Both the position numbers and the translations under genes were made by a program. Positions 3,522 through 9,409 of a DNA stretch of 64,000 nt are shown one piece after another (the first letter of the stretch is position 1; each line of letters opens with the position of its first letter). Origin of the DNA: an uncultured delta proteobacterium (GTDB lineage: Bacteria; Myxococcota_A; Polyangia; Polyangiales; Polyangiaceae); the NCBI GenBank assembly GCA_963839305.1, contig CAWIUL010000011.1:2633561-2697560 (forward strand), in the 5' to 3' direction. Under the pieces are notes generated by a model. That model had not been told where the DNA came from. It worked only from the letters and a program-made list of their open reading frames with translations, and searched no databases.

Positions 3522-3770
3522 TCACGTCTCGAGGAGCCCGAACTCCCAGCTCTCGTCCGGCTCGCGTAAGCCGGCGATCGCCGCCTCCACGCGCTGAAGG
3601 AGCTCTTGCGGGCTCGCGCGTGGGGAGGGGCGCACGGCGACGGCGATTCGTTTCAAGCCGTTCTCCGCTGGCCATTGCCACACGCGGGCCGCGGCGACGC
3701 CGTCGACTGCGTAGACGATCTCCAACATGCGACGCATGCGGGGTGAGAGCTCCGTTCCGGTCTGGGTCAT
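3522..3770 (-). CDS. Small hypothetical protein (82 aa), last gene of the nosL-like ABC operon.
   Basis: ATG at 3768-3770 overlaps the stop of the upstream NosL-like gene (ATGA). The sequence is coding-like and not Arg-rich. Confidence 0.5.
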   Translation of the reverse strand: MTQTGTELSPRMRRMLEIVYAVDGVAAARVWQWPAENGLKRIAVAVRPSPRASPQELLQRVEAAIAGLREPDESWEFGLLET

Positions 3771-4153
3771 GGTGCGAGCGCCTTTTCGTCGACGTCGGCT
3801 AGCGCGAGCGCGCGCGTGCCGCCGTGATCTTTTTCGAACTTGGCGACGCGCGCGGCGTCGACCGGGACGAGATCGGGTCCCATCGGGCCGACGACGTCGC
3901 TCCCGATGACGAAGCGCACGTCCGACGCGGGGCGGAGCGCGCGATCGTAGTAGTCCTGCACGCGCACGGCGCCGTGCTTTCCGCCCTCGAGCCACGTCGA
4001 GAGCGCGCAGCGCGGCGTGTCGAAGCGTCGAGCGTCGAGCTCCGCGTTCCACGGGCTCGTGGGATCGATCTTCATGCCGCAGCGCGCGCATCGCGCGCCG
4101 TCCTGCTTGCAGGAAGCGACGAGGAGTAGCGCGAAGAGCGATCGAGCTCTCAT
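3767..4153 (-). CDS. NosL-like copper-chaperone lipoprotein (128 aa).
   Basis: Lipobox LLVASC. Motif CARCGMKIDP matches the C-x-x-C-G-M-x-I copper-binding motif I recall from NosL. Further similarity to P. stutzeri NosL in ...CALSTWLEG... and YVIGSDVVGPMG. ATGA overlap with the upstream permease gene. Confidence 0.75.
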   Translation of the reverse strand: MRARSLFALLLVASCKQDGARCARCGMKIDPTSPWNAELDARRFDTPRCALSTWLEGGKHGAVRVQDYYDRALRPASDVRFVIGSDVVGPMGPDLVPVDAARVAKFEKDHGGTRALALADVDEKALAP

Positions 4154-5169
4154 CGGAAGAGCGAGGCTCCGTTCGAGACGAACGCCCAGCGCGCGACCGG
4201 GATGATGCACATCACGGTGCAGACGACCCACGCGATCGCGCCGCGACGAAAGCGCGACGACGCGAAAGAGCCCCACGATTCGCGGAGCGCAGGCGCGCGC
4301 GCCAAGAGCGCGGACGCGCCCGCGCCGAAGAGCCAGATGGCGCCGAGGAGCATCGCGCCGAAGAGCGGGTAGCCGATCGCGGCGAAGTCGGGACGAAGGA
4401 GACAGAACGGGCAATGGTGCTGCGGCGCCTCGAACGCGTACGGCGCGACGTGCAAGACGACCGCGGCGAGCCCGAGCGGCAGGGCCAGCGACGCGAGCGC
4501 GCCGGTGAGCACCGCGAGCGGACGGCGCGGGCGGCGAGCGCACGCGAGCGCGAGCGCGATCGACGTGGTGCCCGCGATCGCCGCGAGGACGACCGACACG
4601 ACGCGGGGTCCCGCGGCGGTGCCCGCGCGCGCGGACGCGACGGCGTCGAGCTGCACCGAGCAGCACGAGGCGACGACGCTCAGATCGAGGTCCAGCAAGA
4701 ACACGATCTGAAGCGCGAGATCGATCGCCGCGAGCGGCGCGACGAAGAGCGTGGCCCACGCGAGCGAGCGAACGAGCTCCATGCCTCGAACGCGCGCGTC
4801 GAACGCGAAGAGCTGCGCGAGCGTTCCCGCGGCGAGCGCTGCGACGAGGCTCGCGCCGAGCGCGCGGAACCCCCACGGGCTCGAGTTGAACGTGCCGTAC
4901 GCGCACATCGCGCCGCGGATGCCGCGACTCAGCTTGTCGGCCGCGAGCGCGGAGAGGAGCAGCGCGACGACCTGCGCCGCGGCCCCGACGCGAACGAACG
5001 TGGCCGCGAGCTCGACGCGCCGCTCGAGCGCGAGCTGGCCTTCGGTCGCGCGCATCACGTCGAAGCGGCGAATCACGGTGAGCGCGGTGAAGCTCGCACG
5101 GACCAGCAGCGCGGTCGCGACGACTCCTGCGATGACGCGGAGGAATACCCACGGCTCGAGGAGCTGCAC
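4150..5169 (-). CDS. Polytopic membrane protein (339 aa), probable ABC transporter permease partner.
   Basis: About 8 hydrophobic TM segments. Positioned between the ABC ATPase and the NosL-like gene. Contains an HHCPFC motif. Confidence 0.7.
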   Translation of the reverse strand: MQLLEPWVFLRVIAGVVATALLVRASFTALTVIRRFDVMRATEGQLALERRVELAATFVRVGAAAQVVALLLSALAADKLSRGIRGAMCAYGTFNSSPWGFRALGASLVAALAAGTLAQLFAFDARVRGMELVRSLAWATLFVAPLAAIDLALQIVFLLDLDLSVVASCCSVQLDAVASARAGTAAGPRVVSVVLAAIAGTTSIALALACARRPRRPLAVLTGALASLALPLGLAAVVLHVAPYAFEAPQHHCPFCLLRPDFAAIGYPLFGAMLLGAIWLFGAGASALLARAPALRESWGSFASSRFRRGAIAWVVCTVMCIIPVARWAFVSNGASLFR

Positions 5170-5173
5170 GGCC

Positions 5174-5848
5174 CTATTCTAGCGTGCGAATGCGGCCATC
5201 TGTGACCTCGATGATGCGCGTGACGCCGGGCGCGGCCGTGACGCGCGCGTCGTGGGTCGCGGTGACGATGGCACAGCCGTCCTTCGCGATCGCGCCGATC
5301 TCGCCGAGTATCTGCGCGGCGCGAGCGTCGTCGAGGTGAGCCGTGGGCTCGTCGAGCAGGAGGAGCTTGGGGTTTCCGAGCATCGCGCGTGCGATCGCGG
5401 CGCGCTGGCGCTCGCCGCCCGAAAGCTGCCGCGCCTTGGTATGCGCGAGCGACGCGATCCCGAAGCGCTCGAGGAGCGCGTCGGCGCGCGCGCGATGCTC
5501 GTCGCGAACGCCCACGGGCACGAACGGCAGAAGCACGTTGTCGCGCACGGTGAGGTCGTCGATGAGCTGCAGGTCTTGAAAGACGAACCCCACCGTCGTC
5601 CGTCGAAGGACCGCGCGGTGCTCGTCGCGAAGGCGAGAGGTCGGCTCGTCGTCGAAGAGCACCTCGCCGGCGGTCGGTCTCGACATGGCGCCGATGAGCG
5701 CGAGGAGCGTCGTCTTGCCGCTCCCGCTCGGCCCGCGCAGCACGATCCACTCGCCACGCGCGACCTCGAAGCTCGCGTCGTCGACGATCGTACGGCGCGC
5801 GCGCCCATCCCAGACCTTCTTGGTGACGTTGCGAACGGCGAGCAGCAC
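5174..5848 (-). CDS. ABC transporter ATP-binding protein (FtsE/LolD/MacB-like).
   Basis: Walker A GPSGSGKTTLL, signature LSGGERQR, Walker B LLLLDEP, H-loop. GTG start. Confidence 0.9.
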   Translation of the reverse strand: MLLAVRNVTKKVWDGRARRTIVDDASFEVARGEWIVLRGPSGSGKTTLLALIGAMSRPTAGEVLFDDEPTSRLRDEHRAVLRRTTVGFVFQDLQLIDDLTVRDNVLLPFVPVGVRDEHRARADALLERFGIASLAHTKARQLSGGERQRAAIARAMLGNPKLLLLDEPTAHLDDARAAQILGEIGAIAKDGCAIVTATHDARVTAAPGVTRIIEVTDGRIRTLE

Positions 5849-5983
5849 GGCGTGCCATCATGTGTCATGCGCTTGGGGGCTGACAACCGCGTCGTGCTCG
5901 CACCGCGGGAAAATCGCTAAACAAGGTGGTTGCCAGCTGTTGTGCCGCTGGCACTTGGCGTGCATGCTTGGGGCTGGGCCTCC

Positions 5984-6289
5984 ATGCGCCTTCGCGTCTT
6001 CACCCTCGTCTGTCTTTTTTCCGGCGCCGCCGCGGTCTGGGGCTGTTCACTCAACCCGCAGCCGCTCCCGCCGGACACGGCAGACGGCGGGATTGACGCG
6101 TCCCAGCTCTCTGGGCCGGACGCGACGGGTGGCGCCGATGCAGGCAACACTGCGGACACGTCTCCTCCCCCTACGGGCGACGCGTCGATCGACGCGACGG
6201 AAGATGCGGGCGAGGACGCCAACGACGCCAGCGATGCCAGCGACGGGAGCGAGAGCGACGCGCTCGCCGACGCGGGAGAAGACGGATGA
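5984..6289 (+). CDS. Acidic Asp/Ala/Gly-rich lipoprotein, paralog A.
   Basis: Signal peptide with lipobox VWGC, followed by a conserved SLNPQPLPP motif and a low-complexity acidic tail. The start at M19 of the longer ORF was chosen. Confidence 0.6.
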   Translation: MRLRVFTLVCLFSGAAAVWGCSLNPQPLPPDTADGGIDASQLSGPDATGGADAGNTADTSPPPTGDASIDATEDAGEDANDASDASDGSESDALADAGEDG

Positions 6290-6582
6290 AGCTCCGTACG
6301 CTCCTCGTCGCGCTCGTGGCTTTCGCTTGCAGCGCAGGTGCGTGCTCGCTCAACCCGCAACCGCTTCCGCCGGGCCAGTACGACGCGGCCACGACCGGAA
6401 GCCCTGACGCGGGCAAAGGCGACGACGGCGGCGCGTTCGGCGACGGCGGCGTGCCGACGAGCGAGGACGCAGGAAGCGACGCGAGCGAGGAGGACGCGGG
6501 CGACGCAGAGACCGACGCGGGCGCGGGCGACGCCGAGGTCGACGCCGAGGTCGACGCGGTCGCCGACGCGCCGAGCGACTAA
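6286..6582 (+). CDS. Acidic Asp/Ala/Gly-rich lipoprotein, paralog B (tandem duplicate).
   Basis: MKLRTLLVALVAFACSAGACSLNPQPLPP... has the same motif as the upstream gene. ATGA overlap with paralog A. Confidence 0.6.
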   Translation: MKLRTLLVALVAFACSAGACSLNPQPLPPGQYDAATTGSPDAGKGDDGGAFGDGGVPTSEDAGSDASEEDAGDAETDAGAGDAEVDAEVDAVADAPSD

Positions 6583-7100
6583 CGCACGTACTCGTCGAGC
6601 ACGTTCGCGGCGATGTCCGCGAGGATCCCGTCCGTCACGCGGAGGCGACGCGAGAGATCGCGCGCCACGTTGAGCACGACGATCGCGTACGATTTCACGT
6701 CGTGCCGATAGAGCGAGTCGAGATCTTCGGCCGCGATGCGGAGCAGGCGCGTGGGCGCGAGCGAGCGCACGGTCGCCGAGCGCGGCTGGACGTCGATGAT
6801 CGACATCTCGCCGAACGCGTCGCTCGGGCCGAGGATCGCGATGCGTTGCGTGCGGCCGCGACGGCTCTTCTTGAGCACTTCGACCTCGCCGTCGAGGACG
6901 ACGAACATGTCGTGGCCTTGATCGCCCTCTTGGAACACCGTGGCGCCCGGCGCGACGCGGCGCTGCTGGAGCATGCTCGCGAGGTGCGTGAGGACCTCAT
7001 CGGAGAGCGCGCCGAAGAGGCCGATTTCGCGCAGACGATCCGTCGTCGGGGGGCCGTCGACCGGCGCGGCGTTTGGCATGCGCGGCTGACTGCTACTCAT
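6579..7100 (-). CDS. Cyclic nucleotide-binding domain protein.
   Basis: cNMP-binding fold motifs (FQEGDQG..., FGEMS). The internal ATG at 7098-7100 was chosen because it overlaps the GNAT stop. The longer ORF to 7244 was rejected. Confidence 0.75.
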   Translation of the reverse strand: MSSSQPRMPNAAPVDGPPTTDRLREIGLFGALSDEVLTHLASMLQQRRVAPGATVFQEGDQGHDMFVVLDGEVEVLKKSRRGRTQRIAILGPSDAFGEMSIIDVQPRSATVRSLAPTRLLRIAAEDLDSLYRHDVKSYAIVVLNVARDLSRRLRVTDGILADIAANVLDEYVR

Positions 7101-7540
7101 GACGCGAGCTCCTTCGAGAACACGATGCGCTTTCGCCCCGGTCCCGCGTAGTCGTCGATTTCGTGCGCGGCCCACCCCTGCGAGGTGTGGAAGCGAATGG
7201 AGCCTTCGTTGCCCGTGGTCGTGATCGCCTTCAGCTTCGTGCAACCCGCGGCGACAGCGCCCTCGGTGAACTTCGCGTAGAGGCGGCGACCCACGCCCTT
7301 GCGGCGGTGATCGGGGTGAATTCCGACGAGGTGCACGTAGCCCGTGCGCGTCGGCTCGTGGGCGATGAACCCGAGGAGGAAGCCGATCATCTCACCGCCT
7401 TCTTCCACGACGAGGGCCATGCCGCCGAGCTCGTAGAAGAAGATCGGGTGCGCGAAGGTGCTGATCGGACCACCCCACCAGTGGTCGATGACCTCGACGA
7501 TGCGGTCGAAGTCGGCTTTGGTGATCTTCCGCGTGTCCAT
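7097..7540 (-). CDS. GNAT family N-acetyltransferase.
   Basis: GNAT motif A region HRRKGVGRRLY. 147 aa. Confidence 0.85.
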   Translation of the reverse strand: MDTRKITKADFDRIVEVIDHWWGGPISTFAHPIFFYELGGMALVVEEGGEMIGFLLGFIAHEPTRTGYVHLVGIHPDHRRKGVGRRLYAKFTEGAVAAGCTKLKAITTTGNEGSIRFHTSQGWAAHEIDDYAGPGRKRIVFSKELAS

Positions 7541-7601: not shown

Positions 7602-8273
7602 GTGCGCATGACCCGCCTCCGCATCGCTCCGTCGATCCTGTCCGCCGATTTCGGACGTCTGGCGGACGAGGTGCGCGCCGTCGAGGCCGCGGGAGCCGAT
7701 GTGATCCACGTCGACGTGATGGATGGCCGCTTCGTCCCGAACATCACCATCGGCCCGCCCGTCGTGGCCGCGTTGCGCAAGGTGACCAAGCTCCCGCTCG
7801 ACGTCCACCTGATGATCGTCGAGCCCGAGCGGTACGTCGAATCATTCGCGGAGGCGGGGGCCGACACGATCCTCGTGCACGTCGAGGCGTCGCCCCACCT
7901 CCACCGTACGCTCCAGTCGATCCGCAAGCTCGGCAAGCGCGCGGGCGCGGTGCTCAACCCTTCGACGCACGAGAGCACGCTGCTCTACGTGATGGACGTG
8001 GTCGACCAGATCCTCGTGATGAGCGTGAACCCCGGGTTCGGCGGGCAATCGTTCATCCCGGAGGTCCTCCCCAAGGTGCGCGCGGTGCGCGCGATGATCG
8101 GCTCGCGCGACGTCGACATCGAGATGGACGGGGGGATCGCGCCGGGCACGATCGGACCGGCCGCGGAGGCGGGCGCGAACGTGTTCGTCGCGGGCAGCGC
8201 CGTGTTCGGATCGAAGGACTACGCGAAGACGATCGCGGCGCTCCGGGCGGAGGCCGAGCGCGCGACGCGATGA
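7602..8273 (+). CDS. rpe: Ribulose-phosphate 3-epimerase.
   Basis: Full-length match to the Rpe family: [25 protein letters not shown]. Confidence 0.95.
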
Positions 8274-9409
8274 GGGCGCTCGCGGCGCTGCCCGTGATCG
8301 CGATCGCGCTCGCGTGCGGCGCCTCGAAGCCGCCGAGCCTAGACTCGCGGGAGCTCTTGCCTGCGCCGAGCGCCAAGCCGGACGCGCCCGCGATCGATCC
8401 CGTGCTCGCTCGCATGGCGCGCGCGAGAGAGCTCGACGCGGTGCGTCCCGTGCGGCGCGTTTCGGTCGATCGCGCCGAGTGGATCGCGACGCTCGAGGCC
8501 CACGTCGCGCGAGAGGTGCCGCGTGACGAGATCGACAGCGAAGAGTCCTTCTTGAAGGCGCTCGGCGCGCTCCCGCTCGACGTGGACTACGAGCGCGGCG
8601 TCTACGACTCGATCCGTGGAAGCGGCGGCGGGATGTACGAGCCGTTCGATCGCACGATCTACCTGCCCGATGATCTTCCTCCCGGAGAGCTCGAGCGCAC
8701 GCTCGAGCACGAGTCGGTTCACGCGCTTCAGGATCAACGTTTCGATCTGCGCGCGTTCGAGCGGTATTTGCCTGGCGCGACCGACACGATGCTCGCGCGG
8801 TCGTGCCTCGCGGAGGGCGACGCCTCGGTCGCGGCGAACGAGCGCTTCTCGCCGAGCGCGGCCACGTACATCGAGCGCGAGCTCGCCGCGCCGTACGTCT
8901 ACGGCTCGGCGTTCGTCTCGGCGCTCCGCGCGCGAGGCGGGTGGGCCGAGGTCGATCGCGCGTGGAAGCGGGAAGCGCTGACGACGCACGAGATCCTCCA
9001 CCCCGAGAAGTGGCCGAGCGCGCCGCCAGCGCAAGTCCCCGCGCCCACCTTCGCGACGCTCGGCGGCGCATTTCACGTGGCGAGCGTCGACGTGAAGGGC
9101 GAGCTCTCGCTCTTGCTCGTGCTCCAGTCGATCGGCGCGAGCGCGCGCGTCGAAGCGCCCGCCGCGGGTTGGGCCGGTGATCGCGCCGTGCTCGCGCGCG
9201 ACGGAAAGCGCACCGCCCTCGCGTGGCGGATTCGCTTCGAGGACGACGTCACGGCGAGCCGCACGGCCGCGCTCTTCGGCCCGTGCGACGAGCGCCGCTT
9301 GAGCCCGATCGCCGCGTTTCGAGCCGCGCGCGACGTCCTCGTCCTTTCGGGACCTGCCGGCGCGCGGTGCGATCTCTTGGCGCGCTGGTCGAAGGAAGTT
9401 TTGCCGTAG
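8270..9409 (+). CDS. Putative zinc-metallopeptidase-like lipoprotein (HExxH).
   Basis: Signal peptide with lipobox IALACG and an HESVH motif. ATGA overlap with the rpe stop. Sits in the true frame inside a long spurious 748-aa ORF. Confidence 0.65.

Follow-up and report, generated by a model that had tools for sequence, protein, structure and literature searches.

We analysed a 64,000-nucleotide stretch of DNA (the window) from an uncultured delta proteobacterium of the Polyangiaceae (contig CAWIUL010000011.1, positions 2,633,561 to 2,697,560), in which two adjacent genes, here called A and B, encode small predicted lipoproteins that carry the octapeptide LNPQPLPP just behind the lipobox cysteine. 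An earlier note on this DNA had described them as tandem paralogous acidic lipoproteins of about 100 residues joined by an ATGA overlap, and each of these features is present in the sequence, lipidation being a prediction. Both proteins begin with a basic n-region (MRLR in A, MKLR in B) that is followed by a hydrophobic core and the lipobox cysteine; the N-terminal layout is MRLRVFTLVCLFSGAAAVWG followed by CSLNPQPLPPD in A, and MKLRTLLVALVAFACSAGA followed by CSLNPQPLPPG in B. The PS51257-type layout, i.e. a basic n-region, a hydrophobic h-region and [AGS]-Cys within the first 15-40 residues, is found in both. In the set of 184 distinct mature sequences used to describe the family, the residue at position -1 is Ala, Gly or Ser in 179, and the strict PROSITE-like lipobox rule (PS51257-type) was satisfied by 126 of 178 sequences, some of the misses coming from uncertain start codons. 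A and B are, on these features, probably lipoproteins and substrates of signal peptidase II.

Table 1. Coordinates of the gene pair and of the neighbouring features within the window.
Feature	Position	Strand	Basis or remark
Gene A (position-1 paralogue), 101 residues: signal peptide 1-20, lipobox Cys21, motif, acidic disordered tail	5984..6289	+	Open reading frame and translation; 86 homologues of ~100 residues; structure prediction
Gene B (position-2 paralogue), 98 residues: signal peptide 1-19, lipobox Cys20, motif, acidic tail	6286..6582	+	Open reading frame and translation; position-2 orthologues elsewhere
Codons for C21-SLNPQPLPP-30 of A	6044..6073	+	Translation; columns C, L, P, Q, P, P, P invariant in a 64-sequence alignment
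Codons for C20-SLNPQPLPP-29 of B	6343..6372	+	Translation; against A, 4 synonymous and 0 non-synonymous differences
Translational-coupling junction: GGAG (6275-6278) and ATGA overlap (6286-6289), within the C-terminal ...AGEDG codons of A	6275..6289	+	Read from the sequence
Divergent intergenic region, from the ABC ATPase gene (-) to gene A (+); presumed promoters	5849..5983	.	One promoter-like site, minus strand only
Divergent neighbour operon, four genes	3522..5848	-	Pfam, NCBIfam; context
FtsE/LolD-like ABC ATPase	5174-5848	-	Pfam, NCBIfam
Polytopic membrane protein, 339 residues, Cys motifs HHCPFC and CCS; no Pfam or NCBIfam family	4150-5169	-	Pfam, NCBIfam
NosL-like lipoprotein	3767-4153	-	Pfam, NCBIfam
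Protein of 82 residues	3522-3770	-	Open reading frame
Convergent gene with a cyclic nucleotide monophosphate (cNMP)-binding domain, most constant downstream neighbour	6579..7100	-	Pfam/NCBIfam; context
DUF8575 lipoprotein, HExxH zinc-protease-like motif (HESVH)	8270-9409	+	Abuts the end of the ribulose-phosphate 3-epimerase gene (7602-8273)

The mature N-termini of A and B are identical, as had been claimed, over exactly 10 residues (C-S-L-N-P-Q-P-L-P-P) and not over about 12, the flanking residues being different on either side (G or A before, D or G after). The 30 nucleotides that encode this decapeptide differ between the two genes only at synonymous sites (Table 1), while the overall identity of A and B is 46% (BLASTP, E=1e-14). 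The mature part of A, of 81 residues, contains 20 Asp+Glu and no Lys or Arg, and that of B, of 79 residues, contains 21 Asp+Glu and a single Lys; both are rich in Asp, Ala, Gly and Ser, in agreement with the low-complexity Asp/Ala/Gly-rich bodies that had been reported. No further copy of the motif was found in the six-frame translation of the 64-kb window, whose G+C content is 68%. The stop codon of A and the start codon of B share the ATGA, and the Shine-Dalgarno sequence GGAG of B is located 7 nucleotides 5' of its ATG, inside the last codons of A. Position-1 proteins keep a C-terminus ...AGEDG whose codons overlap the Shine-Dalgarno sequence and the initiation codon of gene 2 (window 6272-6289), and the conservation of this C-terminus may reflect a constraint at the DNA level instead of a feature of the protein.

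Using the 184 mature sequences, we determined the conservation of each position behind the lipobox. Cys, Leu+3, Pro+5, Gln+6, Pro+7, Pro+9 and Pro+10 never vary, Asn+4 is found in all sequences but one (183 of 184), and position +8 is mostly Leu, in fewer sequences Phe, Ile or Tyr, and in one adjacent paralogue Met. Position +2 tolerates several residues (Ser 117, Thr 31, Asp 16, Gly 10, Ala 4, Asn 3, plus others) and is never Lys, the entropy from +11 on is 2.8-3.7 bits, and conservation falls abruptly at the borders of the motif. Because the sequence sets were collected through the motif, its invariance is partly circular; the abrupt drop at the borders and the free +2 position are not. The motif begins at +3 in 104 of 131 instances, and the spacer between the cysteine and the motif ranges from 1 to 13 residues across the family, a Labilithrix-like clade having in gene 1 a spacer of 3-13 residues, as in ...VQAC-ATDGE-LNPQPLPP of L. 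luteola. The codons of the motif vary freely: all four Pro codons occur at every Pro, AAC and AAT are used in a ratio of 61:47 and CAG and CAA in a ratio of 83:25. No RNA family was found by Rfam at window positions 5000-7500. Therefore, the codon usage together with the absence of an Rfam match argue for selection on the peptide and not on DNA or RNA, and an RNA or DNA element was rejected as the nature of the motif.

Pfam and NCBIfam gave no matches for A and only sub-threshold ones for B, of which the best was NCBIfam SinM with 21.8 bits against a cut-off of 250. This weak match consists of signal peptide and low complexity, and the literature search found no SinM paper; membership of B in SinM was rejected. 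Sequence searches of the PDB, with the family profile and with one of the repeat proteins described below, returned no match, and literature searches with the strings LNPQP, NPQPLPP and PQPLPP found no relevant paper. The pair, so far uncharacterised, represents a type of predicted lipoprotein whose disordered region holds what looks like a new linear motif.

The AlphaFold2 (AF2) prediction of A, made with a 64-sequence alignment, presents only the helix of the signal peptide, the remainder being coil with a predicted local distance difference test score (pLDDT) of 55-63. The tails of the family are ~60-180 residues long and keep their composition (Ala 20%, Asp 20%, Gly 19%, Ser 12%) and not their sequence; the median net charge is -18 and the computed isoelectric point (pI) is ~4.05, the lowest value that the calculation can give. 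Judged from the models, the family would be an extreme case in which a lipid anchor and a polyanionic disordered chain come without a folded domain, as an old coupled pair. Since no known retention or matrix code is present, the default rules predict the outer membrane as the expected location. The entericidins EcnA and EcnB of enterobacteria are amphipathic peptides of 40-50 residues, encoded by two small tandem paralogous lipoprotein genes. A and B share with them the tandem arrangement of small paralogous lipoproteins, whereas they are acidic and disordered and have no Pfam match, entericidin included.

The distribution of the family was investigated by scanning one genome per GTDB species with a degenerate DNA pattern for C-x-L-N-P-Q-P-L-P-P. 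The scan returned 75 stretches, of which ~68 are real loci, and every one of these comes from an assembly that bears the label Polyangiaceae, Polyangiales, Labilithrix, Myxococcales or unclassified (delta)proteobacteria. The carriers of the lipoprotein locus include a cultured organism, Labilithrix luteola DSM 27648 (locus L047, NZ_CP012333.1). Confirmation at the protein level failed for one stretch (L043), and six matches in other taxa (Planctomycetota, Clostridiaceae, Sulfotelmatobacter, an archaeon, Phyllobacterium and Gaiellales) were rejected as chance or short non-coding-looking open reading frames, about 9 chance matches being estimated. As the pattern required Cys-x-Leu, the result of one locus per genome, with two assemblies having matches on two contigs, holds for the Cys-x-Leu context only. 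A database search with A led to 86 proteins, mostly of ~100 residues, all of which exhibit the peptide or a one-residue variant directly after the signal peptide and have tails that can hardly be aligned, and a profile search of 1.84 billion cluster representatives gave 997 proteins at E<=1e-3, of which 130 reach E<=1e-10. The family can serve as a clean marker of a single Polyangia lineage; its present annotation is 'hypothetical' only.

The loci of the pattern scan and those fetched before, 73 in total, were re-scanned without the cysteine requirement. Two genes are present in 58 loci and one gene in 15, in dozens of species, and no degenerate second copy was found beside the single gene in the 14 of these 15 loci that were checked. 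For 63 of 65 proteins the best match is located in another genome and is not the tandem partner, and across genomes 26 of 32 gene-1 proteins have another gene 1 as best match and 26 of 33 gene-2 proteins another gene 2. Of 33 other pairs, 19 are joined by ATGA and 6 by TGATG (25/33 together). The earlier note had proposed that a motif confined to this pair would point to a simple recent duplication; the motif is not confined in this way. As the best matches across genomes follow gene position and the junction is kept, the duplication appears to be old, predating the divergence of these species, with the coupling maintained since.

The exact octapeptide is also a repeated module, in 2-9 tandem copies, of hundreds of unrelated and uncharacterised proteins. 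Among the best 150 profile matches there are four non-lipoproteins in which [S/A]LNPQPLPP is present 6-8 times. Two of them (218 and 247 residues) are without a signal peptide, a third (190 residues) has a Sec-type signal, and the fourth (815 residues) presents RTX calcium-binding repeats (PF00353) and then eight copies of YALNPQPLPP(Q/R)EFAELDIGLDFDA. A search with one array protein retrieved at least 578 proteins, and the counts that follow refer to the 118 newly retrieved among the best 120 of these (identifiers of the repeat proteins: P0091, P0110, P0147, P0152 and P0204-P0321). The 118 proteins contain 480 copies of the motif, 463 of them exactly LNPQPLPP, with 1-9 copies per protein and a mode of 4. 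The repeat period is mostly 22-24 residues, and the motif is preceded by [D/S]-x-V-[A/S] and followed by [K/R/G]-[E/Q/D], both flanks being semi-conserved. The linkers are basic (Lys 8.4%, Arg 7.4%), and a crude hydropathy test indicated a Sec-like N-terminus in ~40% of the proteins. The source names, on which the phylum assignment rests for a handful of entries, cover Acidobacteriota, Verrucomicrobiota, Planctomycetota, Cyanobacteriota and Alphaproteobacteria and include Candidatus Didemnitutus (Verrucomicrobiota), Obscuribacterales, Candidatus Angelobacter, Phycisphaeraceae and Xanthobacteraceae. In the protein of Candidatus Didemnitutus, N-terminal repeats are fused to a calpain-type C2 protease (PF00648, precomputed Pfam annotation). 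Neither Pfam nor NCBIfam has a curated family over the repeats, the only matches arising via the fused domains (PF00353, PF00648).

The AF2 prediction of a four-repeat member, made with 14 homologues, gave a pLDDT of 51 and no fold; the motif is therefore again placed in disordered sequence, and a packing of the motif on the intervening segments, as in the PP-fold, was rejected on the same prediction. From the residue frequencies, occurrences of the 8-mer on the order of a hundred are estimated by chance in a collection of 5.8 billion proteins, and the observed recurrence is far above this. LNPQPLPP is, as its occurrences suggest, an independent module, and arrays of an invariant peptide in disordered sequence have, by analogy, the look of multivalent linear motifs. 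An octapeptide that is letter-perfect across at least six phyla, in disordered proteins that otherwise cannot be aligned, is unusual.

In 13 of 122 repeat proteins (P0268, P0294-P0296, P0299, P0291, P0307, P0309, P0313, P0317, P0318 and others), the LNPQPLPP repeats are accompanied by another short invariant peptide, (Q/R)GIIIVGG(K) or a variant of it.

We give a probability of roughly one half to the reading in which the pair consists of coupled, lipid-anchored, disordered and polyanionic proteins that present a polyproline-II-type recognition motif, read outside the cytoplasm. We arrive at it because an 8-mer that is invariant within fast-evolving disorder is found singly next to a membrane anchor, while other proteins have it in arrays or joined to enzymes. 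A and B would be exported, processed by signal peptidase II and anchored by their N-terminal lipid, and translational coupling would yield them in a fixed stoichiometry. Each lipoprotein would then show one copy of LNPQPLPP close to the membrane, with the acidic tail extending as a charged brush, and the octapeptide would be read by an extracytoplasmic trans-acting factor, either a partner that binds it or an enzyme that modifies or processes it. Both the existence and the identity of such a reader, as well as any role of the tail, are deduced here from sequence. In the suggestion of the earlier note that the peptide may be a sorting or recognition tag, recognition in this broad sense is the part that is best supported, in view of the spread across phyla, and the sorting part is not supported, for the reasons given below.

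More tentatively, LNPQPLPP might be an undescribed linear motif that several phyla share and that has its own reader domain or modifying enzyme. The pair would be its single-copy form at the membrane, and the repeat proteins, among them the fusions to calpain-like and RTX domains, a multivalent form that targets or scaffolds the same machinery; we consider this extension possible but less likely than not. To our knowledge, few bacterial short linear motifs have reader proteins, and we know of no bacterial reader domain for LNPQPLPP. If a reader exists, the motif would give direct access to it, by means of a 9-mer peptide as bait and the cultivable carrier Labilithrix luteola DSM 27648.

In eukaryotes, SH3, WW, EVH1 and similar domains read proline-rich short linear motifs, which are often multivalent and appended to enzymes. 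LNPQPLPP is comparable to their ligands in being a PxxP-containing, polyproline-II-prone peptide placed in disordered sequence. The SH3 ligand consensus is [RK]xxPxxP for class I and PxxPx[RK] for class II. The motif holds one PxxP (P7-L-P-P10), which is followed by Lys or Arg in the repeat proteins, giving PxxP[KR], one residue off class II, and by Asp or Gly in A and B. It does not match the consensus of either class exactly, and its carriers appear to be environmental bacteria, their sources being metagenome-assembled genomes (MAGs) or metagenomes. Analogies with ribosome-stalling or arrest peptides and with proline-rich antimicrobial peptides were rejected, since neither the lipoprotein context nor the 4-9 copies in each protein agree with them.

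Several observations weigh against a recognition motif that is read outside the cytoplasm. No reader protein, enzyme or ligand was identified, and the neighbourhoods of three repeat proteins contain no shared enzyme or candidate. By the crude hydropathy test, ~60% of the repeat proteins have no obvious Sec signal, so that the site of action may not be extracytoplasmic in all carriers. The constant neighbours of the pair, the 82-residue protein and the cNMP-binding protein, look cytoplasmic, and the conserved synteny may reflect only shared ancestry in one clade. Additionally, lipidation, localisation and disorder are predictions only, and the statistics of invariance rest on sets that were ascertained by the motif.

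The main rival is that the motif is a site of processing or modification, e.g. of proline hydroxylation or of a cleavage around Asn-Pro or Gln, by a protease or modifying enzyme. A and B would then release their acidic tail or a lipopeptide, and the repeat proteins, as multi-copy precursors, peptides of ~23 residues. The arrays with their regular period of 22-24 residues and semi-conserved flanks ([D/S]x V[A/S] and [K/R][E/Q]) resemble such precursors, and the DUF8575 lipoprotein with its HExxH motif is syntenic with the pair in at least 32 loci, a synteny that could however be inherited gene order. In precursors it is usually the released peptide that is conserved, so that the motif would have to be both product and site, and there is no direct evidence of cleavage. 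Genes for precursors of ribosomally synthesised and post-translationally modified peptides (RiPPs) cluster with those of maturases (radical SAM, YcaO, lanthipeptide synthetase, prolyl peptidase) and their products usually have no Sec signal. No RiPP-type maturase, prolyl peptidase or hydroxylase is among the conserved neighbours of the pair or in the neighbourhoods of the three repeat proteins, and A and B carry signal peptides of the signal peptidase II type. We regard a processing site as unlikely.

A sorting or surface-export signal that directs the lipoproteins to a compartment such as the cell surface or the matrix would account for the start of the motif at +3, right behind the lipidated cysteine, in most instances, and short post-Cys signals of this kind exist in other phyla (PMC5080379; PMC3222651). 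The lipoprotein export signal (LES) of Bacteroidota, K-(D/E)2 or Q-A-(D/E)2 directly after the cysteine, is dependent on charge and position and, within a single proteome, is carried by numerous surface lipoproteins that are not related to each other (Lauber et al. 2016, PMC5080379). Like the LES, the peptide described here is short, conserved and placed directly behind the lipidated +1 Cys. Unlike it, LNPQPLPP is neutral and proline-rich, follows the cysteine in one family only, at one locus per genome in the pattern scan, tolerates a spacer of 1-13 residues and is also present in non-lipoproteins; no acidic signature of the K-(D/E)2 type was found in the A/B family. Compartment signals are also formed by +2 Asp in E. 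coli, by +3 Lys/+4 Ser in P. aeruginosa and, in M. xanthus, by Lys at +2, which specifies the inner membrane, and Ala at +7, which specifies the matrix (PMC3222651). There too the residues next to the +1 Cys decide the destination, and the host of the pair is likewise a member of the Myxococcota. In contrast to these signals, however, the +2 position of the family is the one that varies and is never Lys, +3/+4 is Leu-Asn and +7 is Pro in 184 of 184 sequences, so that neither a residue for Lol avoidance or inner-membrane retention nor the extracellular-matrix signal of M. xanthus is present. Moreover, Lol of E. coli needs a disordered linker of adequate length and no particular sequence (bioRxiv 10.1101/2021.01.05.425367), and the octapeptide is found internally, C-terminally and in arrays in non-lipoproteins. 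Therefore, the variable +2, the spacer of up to 13 residues, the absence of the Cys-proximal context from other lipoproteins and the occurrence in non-lipoproteins make a Lol- or export-type sorting code improbable, and we would give it only a small share of the likelihood.

The motif could also be only a rigid polyproline spacer, the function lying in the polyanionic tail, e.g. as cation buffering or capture together with the NosL/ABC operon or as an electrostatic brush in the periplasm. The consistently acidic tails, with the median charge and pI given above, and the divergently adjacent operon of NosL copper-chaperone type in most loci are in line with this proposal. The Asp/Ala/Gly tails, however, contain no Cu(I)-type ligands (Cys, Met, His), about one locus in three has the lipoproteins but no NosL/ABC block, and the linkers of the repeat proteins are basic and not acidic. 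The disordered N-terminal linkers of RcsF, Pal, NlpD and LpoB lead to a folded domain and are interchangeable in sequence if they are disordered and have the right length (El Rayes et al., bioRxiv 10.1101/2021.01.05.425367). A and B resemble these proteins in that an intrinsically disordered segment follows the lipid anchor; they differ in having no folded domain and in the eight invariant residues of the linker. A spacer does not need an invariant Asn and Gln or identity across phyla, and we consider this explanation very unlikely.

Finally, a recent local duplication, or spurious open reading frames of GC-rich DNA sharing a peptide of no special meaning, has next to no probability: long spurious frames are indeed frequent in all frames at 68% G+C, but the 997 clusters at E<=1e-3, the pairs in 58 loci, the orthology by gene position, the purely synonymous variation of the motif and the conserved signal peptides, as obtained from the pattern scan, codon usage, cross-genome matches, profile search and pair counts, refute it.

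The gene pair lies in a conserved gene block. The block presents, in order, CarD (+), the 82-residue protein (-), an optional set formed by the NosL-like lipoprotein, the 339-residue membrane protein and the ABC ATPase (all -), and A and B (+); 3' of B follow the cNMP-binding protein (-), a GNAT acetyltransferase (-), ribulose-phosphate 3-epimerase (+) and the DUF8575 lipoprotein with HExxH (+). The optional set is present in about two thirds of the loci. A partnership of NosL with an ABC ATPase and a membrane protein that belongs to no family is unusual. The scan for promoters and terminators was uninformative; the stop codons of B (+, 6580-6582) and of the cNMP-binding gene (-, 6579-6581) overlap, which leaves no intergenic room for terminators. 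The DUF8575 lipoprotein is, from its sequence features, a possible candidate for an extracytoplasmic partner of the pair. As the block holds housekeeping genes and is confined to one lineage, synteny cannot tell functional linkage from inherited gene order, and the NosL operon and DUF8575 are leads only.

Some members of the family depart from the common layout. In gene 2 of locus L051 (2994-3407) half of the motif is duplicated, giving CDLNPQPLPPQPLPP. In gene 1 of loci L018 (2132-2911) and L019 (962-1672) the motif reads C-LNPQPHPP-YC: position +8 is His, and the cysteines that flank it are distant from the lipobox. Among the long family genes of 203-210 residues (loci L034, L059 and L061), some exhibit Cys-rich ends, e.g. 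CYEPVDPVDHRCSG and CVRARECYVSYPGKCGVCPWPLDYPVCVEGRCACACE, which suggests a small disulfide-bonded C-terminal module appended to the disordered tail.

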